A stretch of 64,000 bases of DNA, from sequence record MK327931.1; one strand, 5' to 3'. The position numbers and the translations under genes were made by a program. Origin of the DNA: Escherichia phage vB_EcoM_G17. Of this stretch, positions 8,953 through 38,293 are shown piece after piece; position 1 is the first letter of the stretch, and each line of letters starts with the position of its first letter. The notes under the pieces are model-generated. The model saw only the letters and a list, made by a program, of their open reading frames with translations. It did not search any database and was not told the DNA's origin.

Positions 8953-10473
8953 TCATTTCCTTTGATTTAACCATTGCTTCATTGCATGAACACGATCAGT
9001 ACCAGCATGTGTCTGTGGATTCTGTATTTCGTTTTGTGTCGTAGAGTTAGGAGCACTATCAGTATTTAGTGTTACTGTATTGTCAGGTTGCACAGATGGT
9101 GATTTAGCTGCACCAGAAAGCGAATGACGTAATGTTTGCATAGTGCTGGGTGGTAACGCCATGTTCCCTCCACCAATCTTAGAAACACCGCTGTGACGGA
9201 ATCCATTACCTTCGGTTTCCATTTGTTGTACTGTAGTTGCGTGGTCAAGAACTCTCAATGAATCAATATCATATGACATACGCAAACGGGAACCTACTGC
9301 ACTACTGTTACGTGTTTTTTGGAAATCAAACCATAGTTCGCCAGTTTCTTTTTTTGCTTCAATATAAATTACGTTATCAGCAGTATAAATTTTTGAAATA
9401 CCACCAGCAATCTGACTTTGACTTTTCTTATCTTCGTCCATACCACTACGGTTAAACTGAGATGCAGTGAAAACAGTCAAATCCATTTTGGATGCAAGAG
9501 CACGTAATTCTTCTGATACAAATTTATCTTTAGTAAATGTATTGGATTTATCATTTGGTCCAAGACGATTAGAAGTTAATAGATCCAAATAGTCCACGCA
9601 TACATAATCAAGTTTGATTTCCATCTTAATTTGTAATTCACGTAGATAACTTTCAATATCGTCTGTGGTTGTTACAGATTCAGGTAAGCGTTTAATACGC
9701 AACATACCACTGTTTTTACCTTCAACTTTAACAGCAAATCCAATCTTTTCAGCTTCATTTTTTACGTTACTGAGTTTTGATTCAGTCATCATACCATAGA
9801 TACGAACAGCAACCAACTCTTCAGCTAGTTCAAGTGAAATGTATGCACCATTCATTCCAGCTTTCGCAAAGTTAACTGCTAAATTTTGCAGTACTACTGA
9901 TTTACCACCACCTGATGCAGCAGCAAAGATCTCTAACTCTCTACGCCCAAATCCACCGAAAAGTTTGTAATCAAGAGTTTCCCAACCACTCTTAAATGAT
10001 CCTTGCATTGTACTGAGTGAGCGGATTGTATCTTCAGGGTTTTCAAAAATATCCAAACCTAACTCATTCTGTACCGTTACCAACATTGCTTCTCGGATTA
10101 GTTCTTCGATTCCACCATATTTTTTCTGATGGACAAGTTCCATTCCTTTTTCAACGGCTAAAGCTAATGCTTTATGGCGACAAAATTCACCACAGGTATC
10201 AAGTACTGATTGTTTATGTAATTCTTGAACTTCATATTGATCGTATTGATAACCACCTTTAACTTCAATATCTTTCAAAGTAGGTGATGAACTATATTTT
10301 GCAGCATAATCATGCACGTATTGAATACTTTCATGAAATGTTTTATCAAAATATTCTGGTTTAAGGATATTTTTACAACGTACATATAAATCAGGATTAC
10401 TGAAAATCTGAGATAATAAGTATTGTTGTGCATTAATCCCATATTGTTTCACATCCACTGTGCTTTGAATCAT
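8953..10473 (-). CDS. gp41: DnaB-family replicative DNA helicase (T4 gp41-like)
   Basis: 506 aa with Walker A AASGGGKS and RecA-like helicase core; ATG confirmed with GAGGGAA SD. Immediately downstream of the primase gene, as 61 then 41 in T4. Confidence 0.85.
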   Translation of the reverse strand: MIQSTVDVKQYGINAQQYLLSQIFSNPDLYVRCKNILKPEYFDKTFHESIQYVHDYAAKYSSSPTLKDIEVKGGYQYDQYEVQELHKQSVLDTCGEFCRHKALALAVEKGMELVHQKKYGGIEELIREAMLVTVQNELGLDIFENPEDTIRSLSTMQGSFKSGWETLDYKLFGGFGRRELEIFAAASGGGKSVVLQNLAVNFAKAGMNGAYISLELAEELVAVRIYGMMTESKLSNVKNEAEKIGFAVKVEGKNSGMLRIKRLPESVTTTDDIESYLRELQIKMEIKLDYVCVDYLDLLTSNRLGPNDKSNTFTKDKFVSEELRALASKMDLTVFTASQFNRSGMDEDKKSQSQIAGGISKIYTADNVIYIEAKKETGELWFDFQKTRNSSAVGSRLRMSYDIDSLRVLDHATTVQQMETEGNGFRHSGVSKIGGGNMALPPSTMQTLRHSLSGAAKSPSVQPDNTVTLNTDSAPNSTTQNEIQNPQTHAGTDRVHAMKQWLNQRK

Positions 10474-10495: not shown

Positions 10496-11551
10496 TTACA
10501 TCCATTTATCCGTTTGAGCTTTAATATAAAATGGCTCATCTACTATACTATCATGTATTAATTGTAAACAAAATAACCTACCAAATCGTGCACAAGCTTC
10601 TTCAAAGTCTTTGATATGACGTATTGTACTACCTTCTCTTACAGCACCAAAGTCTGGGAAGGAAACACTGAATCCATTTTCAAGTGCTTGGTCTATAGTT
10701 ATTAATCCATCTTTATCTCTATCTGGAACAATAACTATTTTTTTACCTTTTTGCTGTGCATCTTTTAATACATCAATCTGTACGTTTGATAATTTAAAGT
10801 TATTAGCAGATACACCACCCATTAATGCTGCGTCTAACGGACCCTCACATACTAAAATTGTTTTTATTCGTTCATCTTTTAATAAATCATAGTTATATAG
10901 TATATTAGTACTTACTTGATTTATGAACCTGTATGTACTTCCAGGATCTTTTAATTTATGTCGTGCAGTATAACCAATAATTTTACCATTCATGAAATAT
11001 GGAATAATAAATCTGTCATACATTTTATGTTCTTTATTAGGTGACCAATATAATTCTAAGTCTAACAGATATGGGTTTCTTTCATTGACATTATGCAAAA
11101 CACTTATAAATTCTTGTGGAATTTTATCTTCAGGTAAAGAAGCCCATTCCCAAAATGTTTTTGCATTTGATGGCAAATCACGTACTGTTACTCGGTCATA
11201 CAATTTTGATGCAACAGTTTCTTGTGCAGCAAAATCACCGCTGTCAACCATTTCTTTAATATAAAACTTAACTAATTCTATTTCTTTATCTTGTGCACCA
11301 AAAGAAATGAGCAAAGACTCCATATCTTTGCTCATATATTTTCCTGGTTGCCAACCAGTTTTTAAACTACAGTTAAAGCAGTTATATGAAACGGAACCAT
11401 CTGCATTGAACATATGATTACCACGGTGCTTTGTATCCGGCCTTGAATGTCCTCTGAACACACAAGCTGGACAGTTGTGTTGTGACCATGTACCAATCGC
11501 AGGTACTGGATCATTCATAATTTGTGCCATTATGTTTTGTACAGCGTTCAT
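10496..11551 (-). CDS. gp61: DNA primase (T4 gp61-like; zinc-binding plus TOPRIM)
   Basis: 351 aa. N-terminal Cys cluster (HNCPAC...YNCFNC) and TOPRIM-like VCEGPLDA; ATG with AAGGA SD. Confidence 0.8.
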   Translation of the reverse strand: MNAVQNIMAQIMNDPVPAIGTWSQHNCPACVFRGHSRPDTKHRGNHMFNADGSVSYNCFNCSLKTGWQPGKYMSKDMESLLISFGAQDKEIELVKFYIKEMVDSGDFAAQETVASKLYDRVTVRDLPSNAKTFWEWASLPEDKIPQEFISVLHNVNERNPYLLDLELYWSPNKEHKMYDRFIIPYFMNGKIIGYTARHKLKDPGSTYRFINQVSTNILYNYDLLKDERIKTILVCEGPLDAALMGGVSANNFKLSNVQIDVLKDAQQKGKKIVIVPDRDKDGLITIDQALENGFSVSFPDFGAVREGSTIRHIKDFEEACARFGRLFCLQLIHDSIVDEPFYIKAQTDKWM

Positions 11552-12641: not shown

Positions 12642-12995
12642 ATGAATCAATATAACACTATTCCACCATTCATTACTGTAATCCAGTATGATGGTAAAAC
12701 GTTTGTTGGTATCATCAAAATCAAAAGCAAACAGTATACAACTCTTTACTGTTTCGATGATATGGATGATTCAATGCAAGACGAATTGTTAGGTATAGCA
12801 CACGATTGGTGGTGGCAAAGTAATAGAACCATTCCAGTTTGTCTATTCTTTCAAGAAGAGATGGAGAAATTTGAACCGTACACACAGAGATTCGATACAC
12901 CGTCGGTGAATTTCGTATGTGGTCCAGTAGTTTCTTTAAGCAATTTGCCACAGAAACGCATCAAGCGTCGTAATGTGGCTCTTAAGAAGAAGTAA
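12642..12995 (+). CDS. Hypothetical protein (117 aa), plus-strand gene inside the minus-strand block
   Basis: ORF exactly fills the 330-bp gap between two minus-strand genes; Trp-rich (HDWWWQ); basic C-terminus. Confidence 0.4.
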   Translation: MNQYNTIPPFITVIQYDGKTFVGIIKIKSKQYTTLYCFDDMDDSMQDELLGIAHDWWWQSNRTIPVCLFFQEEMEKFEPYTQRFDTPSVNFVCGPVVSLSNLPQKRIKRRNVALKKK

Positions 12996-13620
12996 GATGT
13001 TCAACTAAAGCATTTAGTTGTACAACAATCATTAAGCTATATGCGTAAGCATGTGGCTTTTTGAAATATCGTAATTTATTTCCTGCTTGGTCAGTGCCTA
13101 TAGTACTATAATCCCATATGGTAGCTTTAACTTCGTCCCATGTGTTCATACTTTGGCACTGCCTTTTTCCTGGGCGAATCATTGCAATAAACATTGCTAG
13201 TTCGTCTATAGATTTAGGCTTCCATACATTTAATAAAGTTACATGTTTTTTAATTTGCGATAGATGTTCTACAATTTCGGGTTCTAACAATAGATCCCAA
13301 TTTGGTTCCTGATTCATTAGTTCTTTTAAATGCTCTCTATCACGAACATACATGTAAGCTGACTGTGAAAGAATATCAACTTTTTGATACCCTAACCTTT
13401 CAGCTTCTTTATATTGTATACTTGCCAATCCAGTGATTGGATCAATAGGTATATTATCAAAATGAACACCACTATTATGGGGGATTAAACCATCCTCCGT
13501 AATTTTTTCAGTACTTCGCACACATGGAAGTTTAGCGATTACGCTTTTACTATCCTTGAAGTCAATGTCAATATCAGTTCGGGCTTTTCTATAATGTTTA
13601 GAATCGGTCGAATCCTGCAT
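12982..13620 (-). CDS. Hypothetical protein (212 aa) with local DnaE-like motifs
   Basis: Contains ...VDILSQSAYM..., ...AMFIAMIRPGKR..., ...FKKPHAYAYSLMIV... in the order of fingers-region motifs of bacterial Pol III alpha as recalled; by-eye only. Confidence 0.5.
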   Translation of the reverse strand: MQDSTDSKHYRKARTDIDIDFKDSKSVIAKLPCVRSTEKITEDGLIPHNSGVHFDNIPIDPITGLASIQYKEAERLGYQKVDILSQSAYMYVRDREHLKELMNQEPNWDLLLEPEIVEHLSQIKKHVTLLNVWKPKSIDELAMFIAMIRPGKRQCQSMNTWDEVKATIWDYSTIGTDQAGNKLRYFKKPHAYAYSLMIVVQLNALVEHLTSS

Positions 13621-13927
13621 TTTTTATTTGCTCCTGTAACTGTTTAACTGTATTAGTCAAAGTTGATATTTGATTCTCTAATAATCTACAATTTTGTTTT
13701 GTCTTTGCCAATTCTTGACTTAAACTGAAAAAGCGTTCTTCGTGTCTTTCTACCAAAGAAATAATTTTTTCAATACGAGCAGGATCATGAACTTGAAATG
13801 TTTTACCATCTAAAGTTATTTCAGTAATAGATCCTTGTCTAAGTAGAGATATTTGTTTTGATTTTTGTTCTTTAGGTACAGGTACATACCCTTCTGGTAT
13901 TTTATTATATATACTTTTTCCATTCAT
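13598..13927 (-). CDS. Hypothetical protein (109 aa), C-terminal coiled-coil
   Basis: Heptad-like ...QELAKTKQNCRLLENQISTLTNTVKQLQEQIKN... Confidence 0.5.
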   Translation of the reverse strand: MNGKSIYNKIPEGYVPVPKEQKSKQISLLRQGSITEITLDGKTFQVHDPARIEKIISLVERHEERFFSLSQELAKTKQNCRLLENQISTLTNTVKQLQEQIKNAGFDRF

Positions 13928-14634
13928 AATCCTGCCTCACATAGCATAATCTTAATTTCATCACAATCCTTTTTGTATTTTATAGTTTTGATTTCAAAAT
14001 AACTTGGATCGATGTATTTAAGTATATATTCAATTTCTGAGTTTGATAGTTTTTTAAAAAACTTATTAGTACTTTTTTTAGGAGCAAGCCAGATAATCCA
14101 AGGTGAAATTTTACCACTCTCAATCCATGCAATTGCACGGGCAGAACTTACATTTTCAAAGAAAGTATTCCATTGTACATTCAAATTTTCAGCCCATTCA
14201 ACCAGTGAGATAACACTTCTTGCAATTGCTTCTTTTGGGTGCTCGGCACGAATTGTTTTTAATATCCATTCATCTTTTGCTTTATATGTACTCCATTCCG
14301 TGATTGGTTTGTTATTGATAATCAAGTACTTTACAAACTCGTCCACATTAATAATATCTCTATTATTCAAATAGTATTCGGCAAAACTATAAAAATCATT
14401 AAAGTACTTTGACTTTATAAAAGCAATAAAAGGCTCTACGCCTTTTTTAAATGGGAACTTATTCAATTCCATAAATTGCATATATATACGAAAAGCCTCC
14501 ATCATCTGGCGGCTTTGGCGGTCTTCGTATCGGTCACGTTTTATACATTTATGTGTGTTTACAGTTTCTTCACGTTTAAATTCACGATCACAAAATCTAC
14601 AGGTATATACTTTATTACTTGATTTCTTTGCCAT
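13924..14634 (-). CDS. Hypothetical protein with N-terminal zinc-finger-like motif
   Basis: YTCRFCDREFKREETVNTHKC at the N-terminus (C-x2-C-x12-H-x-C). Confidence 0.5.
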   Translation of the reverse strand: MAKKSSNKVYTCRFCDREFKREETVNTHKCIKRDRYEDRQSRQMMEAFRIYMQFMELNKFPFKKGVEPFIAFIKSKYFNDFYSFAEYYLNNRDIINVDEFVKYLIINNKPITEWSTYKAKDEWILKTIRAEHPKEAIARSVISLVEWAENLNVQWNTFFENVSSARAIAWIESGKISPWIIWLAPKKSTNKFFKKLSNSEIEYILKYIDPSYFEIKTIKYKKDCDEIKIMLCEAGL

Positions 14635-17955: not shown

Positions 17956-18774
17956 TTAATTAGTTCGAGTATTATATTCGTACTCAAATGTATATACTAA
18001 ATCTTTATCACAGTTAGGGTTACTTGCATCTAAAATGTCACTATTAGTAATCATCCATTCAATGTAATTCAATGGAACTGTACTCATTGGCTCACCTTTG
18101 TGTTTACCAAATGGCATGAATTGATAACGCATTGGTGTGTTGCAGAAAGTTACAATTTGCTCACCAATATCACCATTAGGTTCGATATGTCCACGTTCGA
18201 TTGCAATTTCAACTAATTTGATTAGAACCTGATAACACATAAACACATCGTCTTTTGCTGCGTGTGCATTAACAGGTCGATGAACATCACGATAACATCC
18301 AAACTTATACCACAAATAACTTAGAGTTAAGTTTTTAAATTCAATATCTTCTGCGAACATTTTCTTAGCAAGACGAAGGGTACAAATCCATTTATTTTCA
18401 TCAAGTAAGTACTGTGAAATTGAGTTACGATATTTATATTCGTTATCTACCATCATTCTACGGTCAAATTGTACATTATGACCAACAAAATACTTACGGC
18501 ATCCCATAAGTGCATCAATGTTATCTAAATCATCTTTATACCCAACACAATTAGCTACATCCTCAGTACTGATAAAGTGCACAGCAGATGCCTCTGGTGG
18601 AATATCTTTCAAGGGTTTGTATCTCAATGTATAGTTATCAATAGTATCAATGTTTTCATGTGAAGTATGTGGATACGAGATACTAAATTCAATAATATCA
18701 TCTTCACTCTCAACCCCAGTAGTTTCAGTATCTAGAACTGCTACATTTGATAAAAACTCATTTAATTTTGTCAT
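17956..18774 (-). CDS. DnaQ-like 3'-5' exonuclease (DEDDh) with C-terminal DUF3820-like extension
   Basis: Exo I VLDTETTG, Exo II FVGHNVQFD, Exo III HAAKDD; C-terminal ...MPFGKHKGEPMSTVPLNYIEWM... resembles the DUF3820 motif. Functional analogue of T4 DexA. Confidence 0.7.
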   Translation of the reverse strand: MTKLNEFLSNVAVLDTETTGVESEDDIIEFSISYPHTSHENIDTIDNYTLRYKPLKDIPPEASAVHFISTEDVANCVGYKDDLDNIDALMGCRKYFVGHNVQFDRRMMVDNEYKYRNSISQYLLDENKWICTLRLAKKMFAEDIEFKNLTLSYLWYKFGCYRDVHRPVNAHAAKDDVFMCYQVLIKLVEIAIERGHIEPNGDIGEQIVTFCNTPMRYQFMPFGKHKGEPMSTVPLNYIEWMITNSDILDASNPNCDKDLVYTFEYEYNTRTN

Positions 18775-30992: not shown

Positions 30993-33900
30993 TTACCAAG
31001 TGAAGAATCCATTGTTTACTGACGCAGTACTTTTTTCATGAATACCAATATCCATATCCAAAATACCAAAAATATTCTCTAATTTTTTAGTTAGAACAAT
31101 CTCTTCCATTTTTTCAGTATCAAATGGTAGTTCCAAGAACCATTCTGGTAGATACTCAACACAGTCAATTGGATATCCAACAGCTTTAATTCCCATAGGA
31201 TTATCTTTTAAGTTACAGACAATTACTTTTGTTCCATCTGTTACTTCTGGAACAGATTTATCATCATAAACTTCACGTAGACGGTTCCATTGGATACCAG
31301 CAAGAACGTGACCAACTTTACACTTACCAGTTAGCTGATATTCAGCCTCTAAATTAGTGTAGTTTTTTACAGTTTTTGGTGAACCTTTTTCATGTACAGG
31401 CATATCCTTAAATACGTCCTTAAACTCACGTACACGCTGTTTTAGCTGCTGTTCACTCTCACCTACCAGTAATGCGATTAGAGTCTCTTCTAGGAAGTTC
31501 TGGATGTATTTTGGCGTGTCTGAGCGTTTAATTTCAAGACCCATCGCTTTGATTTCACCTGGTTTACCATCAATATCTTTACGGAACCCATCTTCCCAGT
31601 ACTTCAGAATTGCATAACGTTTTTTCTTCAAGAATAGGCCACGTGAACCAACCATCTCAAGGTCTGCACCAACAATCTTACCTTTTTCAATACCAGTGTT
31701 GAACATCTCATGCATAAATGATGGGAAAGATTCACCAACTTCTTCACCAATTTTAATATACATATCAACAATCTCTTCTTTAGATAGATTATATGGAATA
31801 CCTTGTTCTTTCAGATAATGCGTTACACTAAAGTAAACTGAGTCAGTATCACCATAAATTACTGAACCACCTTGGTGATTATATACACCAGTAGTAATCT
31901 CATTGATACGACTTGCCATATGTTTGGTCATAGAACGTCCAGTTAATGTTACGGATTGACCTAAACGTTTGTCAAAGAAACGAGAACCTTTGTTCAATAG
32001 TGCACCATATAGACTGTTTAGAAGAATCTTACGAATCTGTTGGTTCTGTTTCCAGAAAGCACTACGTTGTTTGAAGTAATCTTTTTCTTCTTTAGGACAG
32101 AAAATACGACCATCTTTTAGTACTAAACCATTTTCTACAATCAACTTAGCAACTTCATCCCATTGTCCTTTACCAATTTCTTTACGAAGTAAGTATACAG
32201 GATCATTATCATGAATATTAGTTCTAAACATTGTACCAGGGGTATAGTTTGATAGTAGTGGTTCGACTTTTTCATAGCCATTAAACTCCCAACCATCAGT
32301 ATACATATGTTTATAGTCAATGACCATTTTTTGCTGTGCTTTACGTTCAGAATACCATTGAGTTAGAATGTCAGGAATTACACCAGACTTAGACTTATCA
32401 AAAAGTGTTCCGTTTGCACTAAGTACAATAGTACTATCTTCTGCAAAAATAATATCATATAGCTCTTTGCCCGTTGCTTTAAAAGAACTCCCATCTTCTA
32501 AATCAACAATCAATGTTTCTTCTGACTTTTCATGAACCATTGTAAATTCAACAGCAGCAAATAAACCATGCCATGCCGCAGTCCAATCTGGTTCAAATGA
32601 TTTAGATTTAGATTTGTTCTTCTGTTCTTGGATTTTAGCTGCAAGATACGCATCGGTGTAATCTTGACGTAATTGACCAAGAATACATTCAGTACTCATA
32701 CCCAAAGTACGTAGAACAGTAGGGTAAAGAGAGTTAAAGTCAGTACACCCAAGGTCACTTACAAGTCCTAGTACTGGATCTTGTACCCATGCACCTGCTG
32801 CTTTTGCACTAATTTTCTCATCTTCATCTTCACCATCTTCACCATAATATTCCATTTCTGGATCAAACTCAAGATCATCTTTAGGTGCTTTGTTAAAAAC
32901 AACTTCACCACGAGTATGTGCTAAGTTGATAATAGCAGTGTCGATTAGTGCTACTGAACCCATTGTTGTGCTGATAAGTACACATTCTTTGTGTGCAAGT
33001 CGATTGTGTAGGTTGATATAGTCACATTTAGCATCAATCTTTTTAAGAAGAATACTATCCTGTTTAGAATAACGCAAGAAAGTAATGTAATCCTCTCTGT
33101 AAAGTTTATCCAATGAACCTTCATATGATACTTTATTTTCTTTAGTTACTTTTTCAGCAATATAATCTAGTTTATAAGATTGTTCAACTTGACCAGCATG
33201 TTTCTTATACAAAGCCAAATAATCAAGATGGACGCGACCTACCAGATCATATGTTTGAACAGTTTTACCAAAGTTGTCTGCTTCACGTGAATTTGGTTTT
33301 TTATTCCATAAACACCAACGAGCAGTTGTTGCTTCATTGAAGATTTTTTTAGTTCGATTGATCATATATGGAATATCAAAGAATTCACTATTCCATCCTG
33401 AAATAACATCAGAATCATCAATTAAACTAAAGAATTCCATAAACATTTCCTTTTCGTCTGTATATAAAATTACAGTACTGTTAGGATCGTTTGTTTCTTC
33501 ATTTAGTTGGCGAACAATATCTTGTGCTTCATAAATTTCCATATCAGCAGGTGGTAAAGTAAGTACATAATCCTTTCCAGTCCACGATTGATATAGAGAA
33601 ATAGCGGTTACTCGGTTAAACGGGTCTGATGGTGGAGCATAACCAAATTTCTTATGGAAATCAGTCTCGATATCGAAGAACACGATGTTCAAATCGGGTG
33701 AACCTTTTCCCATATATTCTTTAGCTAATGTTTTAAATGTAATGTTACAATCACTTTCAAAAATACGTAGACCTTCACTTTTGTGTTGCTCTACACTTTT
33801 ATTCATTTGAGCTTGAGTTTGAAACTCAAAATGTTTAGCCATTGTACCATAAACAGTTTTATGTGTTCCTTGTGGGGATTCAACATAATATTCATATACT

Positions 33901-33998
33901 GGATCTAATTCGCGTAGAATACGTTTACCATTCTTACGTTCAACTACATGAAGAATATCACCAGTACGTTTACGTTCCATATAAGCATCGATATACAT
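30993..33998 (-). CDS. gp43: Family B DNA polymerase (T4 gp43-like)
   Basis: 1001 aa; B-family signature ...VIYGDTDSVYF...; N-terminal exonuclease-like region; ATG confirmed. Confidence 0.9.
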   Translation of the reverse strand: MYIDAYMERKRTGDILHVVERKNGKRILRELDPVYEYYVESPQGTHKTVYGTMAKHFEFQTQAQMNKSVEQHKSEGLRIFESDCNITFKTLAKEYMGKGSPDLNIVFFDIETDFHKKFGYAPPSDPFNRVTAISLYQSWTGKDYVLTLPPADMEIYEAQDIVRQLNEETNDPNSTVILYTDEKEMFMEFFSLIDDSDVISGWNSEFFDIPYMINRTKKIFNEATTARWCLWNKKPNSREADNFGKTVQTYDLVGRVHLDYLALYKKHAGQVEQSYKLDYIAEKVTKENKVSYEGSLDKLYREDYITFLRYSKQDSILLKKIDAKCDYINLHNRLAHKECVLISTTMGSVALIDTAIINLAHTRGEVVFNKAPKDDLEFDPEMEYYGEDGEDEDEKISAKAAGAWVQDPVLGLVSDLGCTDFNSLYPTVLRTLGMSTECILGQLRQDYTDAYLAAKIQEQKNKSKSKSFEPDWTAAWHGLFAAVEFTMVHEKSEETLIVDLEDGSSFKATGKELYDIIFAEDSTIVLSANGTLFDKSKSGVIPDILTQWYSERKAQQKMVIDYKHMYTDGWEFNGYEKVEPLLSNYTPGTMFRTNIHDNDPVYLLRKEIGKGQWDEVAKLIVENGLVLKDGRIFCPKEEKDYFKQRSAFWKQNQQIRKILLNSLYGALLNKGSRFFDKRLGQSVTLTGRSMTKHMASRINEITTGVYNHQGGSVIYGDTDSVYFSVTHYLKEQGIPYNLSKEEIVDMYIKIGEEVGESFPSFMHEMFNTGIEKGKIVGADLEMVGSRGLFLKKKRYAILKYWEDGFRKDIDGKPGEIKAMGLEIKRSDTPKYIQNFLEETLIALLVGESEQQLKQRVREFKDVFKDMPVHEKGSPKTVKNYTNLEAEYQLTGKCKVGHVLAGIQWNRLREVYDDKSVPEVTDGTKVIVCNLKDNPMGIKAVGYPIDCVEYLPEWFLELPFDTEKMEEIVLTKKLENIFGILDMDIGIHEKSTASVNNGFFTW

Positions 33999-37369: not shown

Positions 37370-38293
37370 TTACTTAAAAGTATTTACAATTTCTAAAACA
37401 CTTTCAAGATACTTAGCATCAAATGTTTCAGTAAATCCTGACGGTAACTCTTCAGTACTTACAACACCACTTTCAATGTATTTCTTTATGAACTTTTCCA
37501 ACAGTAATGGTTGATTGCCATCTTCAAAGTAGCGTTCTACAAGTACTTCATGCTCGAACTCAGAATTGCGACTTTGTTCGTTTACACGGCGTTTCATATC
37601 ACCAGTGATTCCATACTTGTACACCGTCTTGTCATTGTTAGTTAGTTTTTGAACATAGAAATATCCAGGTTTTGATGGTTGATAACCATACTCACCACAT
37701 GATGGACATCCTCTTCCTGCCATATGAGATTTGGGTATTTGTTTAAAGACACCATGTTCAGGACAAATAATATCCACATGTTCATCACTAGTCTTGTAAT
37801 CCACCAAGCTATAATCATACTTATGGTTATGGATAGGCGACACAAGTTCAATGAAACGTTCAGTACTTCTTCCACCTTTACCAGAACATATTCCACAACT
37901 AGTTTTTCCTTTTAATAATGTTGCGGCTGATACTTCCCAATCATGCACATCATTCGGATCATTATGACATGTAACGATGACTCGCCCATTACTGTCACTT
38001 TGTTTTTTGTAGATAGTTTTCTCAAATGACAATGTTGGATGGATGGTTTTAACTTTTTCAATAAACGTTTCGGTCGTGTATGCTGTGTTTTTTTGACAAA
38101 TGTTACATCCTTTTGCAGAAGGTCGGACTATTTGCATAGGAGTGATTTTGAAATAATGACAACCTTCTACACAATAAAGTTCAACCTGTTTATGAGCATT
38201 AATATATACCATTTTATCAAACAAATACACACCAGTACCATACTTTTCATTCACTGCATTAATAAATTTTTCTTCATTTGGATTCATTGTCAT
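37370..38293 (-). CDS. Homing-endonuclease-like protein: three Cys/His zinc-ribbon-like repeats plus C-terminal T5orf172 domain
   Basis: Three ~60-aa repeats (FIEKV...IHP...Y.Y...V.I.C..HG.F......H..G.GCP.C); C-terminal KTVYKYGITGDMKRRVNEQ T5orf172-like domain. Confidence 0.5.
   Translation of the reverse strand: MTMNPNEEKFINAVNEKYGTGVYLFDKMVYINAHKQVELYCVEGCHYFKITPMQIVRPSAKGCNICQKNTAYTTETFIEKVKTIHPTLSFEKTIYKKQSDSNGRVIVTCHNDPNDVHDWEVSAATLLKGKTSCGICSGKGGRSTERFIELVSPIHNHKYDYSLVDYKTSDEHVDIICPEHGVFKQIPKSHMAGRGCPSCGEYGYQPSKPGYFYVQKLTNNDKTVYKYGITGDMKRRVNEQSRNSEFEHEVLVERYFEDGNQPLLLEKFIKKYIESGVVSTEELPSGFTETFDAKYLESVLEIVNTFK

Follow-up and report, generated by a model that had tools for sequence, protein, structure and literature searches.

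Why would a phage that encodes its own family B DNA polymerase also carry a small protein with motifs of the bacterial replicase DnaE? The question is raised by an open reading frame (ORF) at 12982..13620, on the minus strand of a 64,000-nt stretch of Escherichia phage vB_EcoM_G17 (record MK327931.1), which is called the window below. The initial annotation, made from the sequence alone, proposed that the 212-aa product resembles the fingers region of the DNA polymerase III (Pol III) alpha subunit in a compressed form; its coordinates proved exact, with the strand left unstated. Our analysis indicates that this protein is very probably the C-terminal subunit, with Mg2+-binding palm strands and minimal fingers, of a split, two-piece minimal C-family DNA polymerase, which most likely serves as an accessory enzyme. 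The gene begins with an ATG codon preceded by GGAG at a distance of 10 nt, and it shares its first 23 nt with the end of the upstream gene 13598..13927. The product has the same sequence as PBECO4 gp488 (YP_009150802.1) and shows 99.5% identity to 121Q gp16 (YP_009101610.1); RefSeq names both 'DNA polymerase'. The protein also matches phrog_11778, a 'DNA polymerase' family (2e-108), and its homologs bear the label 'DNA polymerase III alpha subunit' in some GenBank records. The 3-kb stretch around the gene shows 100% identity to Escherichia phages slurp01, IA-38, CRJP21 and Sharanji and 99.8–99.9% identity to PBECO4 and phAPEC6. These are Rak2-like jumbo phages of ~350 kb, and PBECO4 and 121Q are classed as Asteriusvirus, to which the window also belongs.

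The 212-aa protein contains metal-binding palm strands and a reduced fingers domain. In an alignment of 39 diverse homologs, reaching down to 40% identity, residues D16, D18, D20, H48, G51, K80, D82, R149, P150, K152, H190 and Y194 are invariant, and K187 and K188 are conserved in at least 90% of the sequences; the family as a whole comprises 565 representative clusters. The invariant DxDxD strand, D16-I-D18-I-D20 (13561..13575, minus strand, as are all the motifs that follow), corresponds to D401-F-D403-V-D405 of Escherichia coli DnaE, which contains the first two catalytic carboxylates, and aligns to 'DFDVDF' in E. coli and to 'MPDIDIDF' in Mycobacterium tuberculosis. H48-N-S-G51 (13468..13479) occupies the positions of the E. 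coli 'KHAGGV' motif (H511). K80-V-D82 (13375..13383) is aligned by both hhalign and hmmsearch with the E. coli and M. tuberculosis DnaE sequences and corresponds to E. coli K553-F-D555, which holds the third catalytic carboxylate. In Pol III alpha, the catalytic role of the carboxylates D401, D403 and D555 is well established. Two fingers motifs follow the palm in the same order as in DnaE, namely the RPG motif R149-P150-G-K152 (13165..13176), which corresponds to E. coli R639-P640-G641 and lies in the match to the Pfam family DNA_pol3_finger, and the (N/K)K(S/x)HxxxY motif K187-K-P-H190-A-Y-A-Y194 (13039..13062), which aligns with E. coli N757-K758-S-H760-S-A-A-Y764 such that K188, H190 and Y194 are equivalent to K758, H760 and Y764. 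Because all three catalytic aspartates (D16, D18 and D82) are retained, the protein is more than a fingers fragment. The term 'fingers region' was too narrow for the protein, which also carries the palm strands with these aspartates, overlooked in the initial annotation. The three motifs that had been recognized by eye lie at residues 80–90, 145–151 and 186–196 and are collinear with DnaE in the alignments to both bacterial proteins. The compression noted at the same time is real: the distance from D401 to H760 is 359 residues in E. coli, against 174 between the equivalent positions here.

The resemblance to DnaE is settled by structure, since the sequence statistics alone are weak. An AlphaFold2 model of the 212-aa protein has a mean pLDDT of 92.9, and the best 11 Foldseek matches in the Protein Data Bank (PDB) are all Pol III alpha, followed by nothing below E 1.9. 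The model thus predicts the palm-plus-fingers fold of the C-family polymerases. Against PDB sequences, the profile of the 39 homologs returned two matches only, both to M. tuberculosis DnaE1 (E 0.18 and 0.43) and both weak, over four collinear stretches. The single sequence found only a chance match to dynein by phmmer against the PDB. DNA_pol3_finger (PF17657; gathering cut-off 22 bits) matches the 212-aa protein at aa 129–162 (E 0.045, 13.5 bits); the same family is matched independently by 17 of the 39 members, none of which reaches the cut-off, and no other Pfam family recurs. DNA_pol3_alpha (PF07733; gathering cut-off 23.9 bits) was not matched by the 212-aa protein alone in the Pfam scan, and this threshold is passed by the partner and by the fused homologs described below. 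The assignment of the protein as a DnaE/Pol III alpha homolog is hence supported by its fold, its collinear motifs, its partner and its natural fusions.

The part of the nucleotidyltransferase core that is missing from the 212-aa protein is found in a second gene. The GS (G-R-G-S) nucleotide-binding motif is absent from the 212-aa protein, in which the DxD strand appears already at residue 16. This motif is kept ('...GLGRGSS...') by a 172-aa partner, 121Q gp56, which is encoded 30.3 kb from the gene of the C-terminal half (C-half) in PBECO4 and 121Q, near topoisomerase and clamp-loader genes. The partner gene was not found within the 64-kb window; in PBECO4 coordinates it lies at 239918-240433, ~17.4 kb past the left edge of the window. 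The partner passes the DNA_pol3_alpha threshold with 37.9 bits, and the match covers only profile positions 16–95, at aa 92–171 of 172. Its C-terminus, '...GLGRGSSVASYCLFLIGLHMVDSLKYELDVNEFLKW*', corresponds to E. coli DnaE G361-RGSGAGS...FERFLNP, just before D401, and thus ends at the exact point where the 212-aa protein starts. When the two proteins were fused in silico, the PF07733 score rose to 44.8 bits and the match crossed the junction to profile position 112, through the DxDxD strand. The two half-genes were counted in 95 and 93 phage records, and the counts per genus are nearly the same for both. They lie apart in every case: the distance is 30 kb in Asteriusvirus and also in the Vibrio phage, 44 kb in PA5oct, and 14 kb in Xoo-sp13. 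Both halves are also present in the 141-kb non-jumbo Alishewanella phage Slickus01, where they lie 11 kb apart on the minus strand (L012:29796-30308 and L012:18346-18957) and are both annotated as 'hypothetical protein'. The N-terminal half (N-half) of Slickus01, WGH49842.1, ends in '...GVGRGSSCASLVF...FAELSKEM*', which places the break point as in Asteriusvirus. An arrangement of adjacent halves in this phage was considered and rejected, as the ORFs upstream of the C-half have no GS motif and the N-half is 11 kb away.

Natural unsplit forms of the minimal core, the proteins P0185, P0271, P0270 and P0258, were observed on short phage-like metagenomic contigs, with lengths of 336–376 aa; P0185 (L007:1066-2193) and P0271 (L008:519-1649) have 375–376 aa. 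Natural fusions exceed the PF07733 threshold with 59.6 and 35.4 bits. The fused homologs supply the GS motif in cis, and the junction between their halves is a loop of 5–9 residues. Such single-chain forms would be convenient for biochemistry and could be expressed directly.

Compared with E. coli DnaE, the phage protein has been reduced mainly at two sites: the thumb segment (32 residues instead of 110) and the insert that separates the RPG and KSH motifs (41 residues instead of 121). Palm strands and the reduced fingers domain account for all 212 aa, and no PHP, thumb, clamp-binding or OB domain was detected by Pfam in either the 212-aa protein or its 172-aa partner. The break parts the GS helix from the DxD strand and thereby cuts through the Pol-beta-like nucleotidyltransferase core, for which reason the two halves would be expected to assemble non-covalently by fold complementation. 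Together they would form one active site, which would add deoxynucleoside triphosphates to a primer by two-metal catalysis. The phage encodes, as the initial annotation had pointed out, a complete family B DNA polymerase of 1001 aa, the presumed main replicase (30993..33998, minus strand; Pfam DNA_pol_B_exo1 3.8e-23, DNA_pol_B 1.3e-21), and for this reason the minimal Pol III most likely serves as an accessory enzyme. Speculatively, it might extend primers and then hand them off, fill gaps or act in repair, as proposed by Iyer et al. (2021; PMC7824862).

Several points weigh against this reading. The thumb and the clamp- and DNA-binding C-terminal domains, which hold the primer-template in canonical Pol III alpha, are absent, and the way in which such a minimal enzyme would grip DNA is thereby left unexplained. 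The 212-aa protein alone scores below the Pfam threshold (13.5 against 22 bits), the best PDB match of the family profile has E 0.18, and hhalign of this profile with the single E. coli DnaE sequence aligns only the block from KxD to RPG (E 0.024, probability 2%). A literature search found no experimental polymerase activity or heterodimer formation for any member. Identity with the published 'C-terminal unit' of Iyer et al. rests on the matching description and phage group. The extreme reduction, without thumb, PHP, clamp-binding or OB domain, the sub-threshold Pfam score and the availability of a complete family B polymerase would also fit a catalytically dead DnaE relic that is kept for a non-enzymatic role, as a replisome scaffold or a virion component; several adjacent 121Q genes are in fact annotated as 'virion structural protein'. 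A relic would be expected to lose exactly those active-site residues that are conserved here. In contrast, neither the three catalytic aspartates nor the fingers motifs vary among the aligned homologs of a family of this size, the GRGS motif is kept in the partner, and both genes are kept together across very divergent phages. We therefore regard a relic as quite unlikely. The pair may alternatively be an active Pol-beta-fold nucleotidyltransferase that is not a template-directed DNA polymerase and that acts, for instance, as a terminal transferase, in primer tailing, in the modification of nucleotides or in the production of a signalling nucleotide; to this we assign a still smaller likelihood.

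DnaE is also the classic example of a protein that is naturally split by an intein, and the halves could in principle be joined by trans-splicing in the manner of cyanobacterial DnaE. However, the DNA_pol3_alpha match of the partner extends to its last residues, just 15 poorly conserved residues precede the DxD strand in the 212-aa protein, and the junction of the fused homologs is only a short loop. A split intein was rejected, since no intein-sized sequence exists at either end of the break. With no intein present or able to fit, any assembly of the halves must be non-covalent. A merely coincidental likeness, which the initial annotation had allowed for, would agree with the weak single-sequence E-values and is excluded by the fold searches and the fused homologs. 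Chance and trans-splicing together are accordingly considered extremely improbable. The two-piece minimal C-family polymerase hence remains the preferred reading. A stronger version of it is possible, and we put it forward tentatively: the pair, or its natural 375-aa single-chain form, may be an active C-family polymerase without thumb or clamp-binding domain, the smallest known by far, that is dedicated to one step of jumbo-phage replication, such as the extension of primase-made primers before hand-off to the family B enzyme, or gap filling and repair. In this case the minimal Pol III might even preserve a near-ancestral catalytic core of bacterial Pol III, rather than represent a reduced copy.

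The C-half gene lies in a conserved module, in which a UvsW-type helicase, small genes, the Pol III C-half, a convergent small ORF, a ~300-aa protein, a primase and a DnaB helicase follow in this order. The same order is held in Pseudomonas phage Paride and Vibrio phage 2.275.O. In the window, the DnaG-like primase (10496..11551, minus strand) and the DnaB-like helicase (8953..10473, minus strand) were assigned from the annotation of relatives. The convergent ORF (12642..12995, plus strand) encodes 117 aa, belongs to phrog_11637 (function unknown) and overlaps the C-half gene by 14 nt at the 3´ end of the latter; a small ORF on the opposite strand occupies the equivalent position in Paride (L009:7581-7979) and Vibrio phage 2.275.O (L010:7604-7981). 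The product of 13924..14634 (minus strand; phrog_11058, function unknown), whose gene lies two genes upstream of the C-half, has an N-terminal CxxC...H...C motif that resembles a zinc finger. Its N-terminus is weakly similar (25 aa, pairwise E 0.004) to that of the Slickus01 product L006:2886-3506, which is encoded at an equivalent relative position, and the protein may be a companion that is conserved between these phages. A scan of the neighbouring genes for functional clues returned only PHROGs of unknown function and coiled-coil noise.

A stand-alone DnaQ/epsilon-like 3´-5´ exonuclease of 272 aa is encoded at 17956..18774 on the minus strand (RNase_T PF00929, 6.7e-15; phrog_192 'DNA polymerase exonuclease subunit') and might be a candidate proofreader for the minimal Pol III. 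In E. coli, epsilon docks on the PHP domain of Pol III alpha. Because this domain is absent from the phage protein, a pairing of the two would need a different interface. The C-terminal tail of the exonuclease shows weak matches to ExoX-like_C and QSregVF_b. Elsewhere in the window, the interval that separates the tail-fibre genes from the gene of the major head protein is ~960 bp longer than in PBECO4. It contains a 307-aa ORF (37370..38293, minus strand) whose product combines a treble-clef zinc finger (DUF4379, 24.7 bits) with a weak match to T5orf172, which suggests a mobile insertion of the homing-endonuclease type.

If active, a two-subunit enzyme of 384 residues or a single-chain enzyme of 375 residues would mark out the minimal catalytic core of the replicase family of bacteria. 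Its structure and mechanism would be readily accessible to study, and the single-chain forms would offer a ready-made minimal model of C-family catalysis. The pair also poses a question that was raised in 2021, namely why a phage with a complete family B replisome keeps a second polymerase core of bacterial type.

The split minimal Pol III is already known and is not new. A literature search for experiments on split or minimal Pol III found only one comparative-genomics paper, in which Iyer, Anantharaman, Krishnan, Burroughs and Aravind (2021, Viruses 13:63, PMC7824862) described a split minimal Pol III alpha in group 2.2 jumbo phages. According to that paper, the enzyme consists of two separate proteins whose genes lie far apart: one is the N-terminal unit and binds NTPs, the other is the C-terminal unit and binds Mg2+ and the template. 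Neither contains further Pol III domains, and the sections on this system describe only the split form. The phage group is the same, Rak2/121Q-like with a T4-type family B polymerase, and the 212-aa protein fits the C-terminal unit in every respect tested, with no difference found. The 'fragment' of the initial annotation is thus not a stray piece of DnaE; it belongs, as one subunit, to a conserved enzyme encoded by two genes, which had already been published. Earlier genome papers had recorded the N-half alone and called it a 'truncated' Pol III alpha (CBB_328 and Atu_ph07 gp316), and the omics paper on PA5oct makes no mention of a DNA polymerase. Added here are the residue-level map, the conserved break point, the natural single-chain forms of 375–376 aa and the presence of both halves in a non-jumbo phage of 141 kb.

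Compared with bacterial DnaE and PolC of ~1160 aa, the phage core is very small (212 aa, or 384 aa for the pair), has no PHP domain, thumb, clamp-binding/(HhH)2 region or OB domain, and is broken into two polypeptides. It shares with cyanobacterial split DnaE the division of a dnaE gene between two distant loci. In cyanobacteria, however, intein halves flank the break and the product is spliced to one chain, whereas the phage pair has no intein. A further likeness concerns Bacillus subtilis, in which DnaE extends RNA primers and then hands off to PolC. Here too a second DnaE-type polymerase stands beside a main replicase, and the phage gene is linked to those of a primase and a helicase. The main replicase of the phage is a family B enzyme rather than PolC, and a role in primer extension like that of B. 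subtilis DnaE would, by this analogy, be a hypothesis for the minimal phage Pol III.
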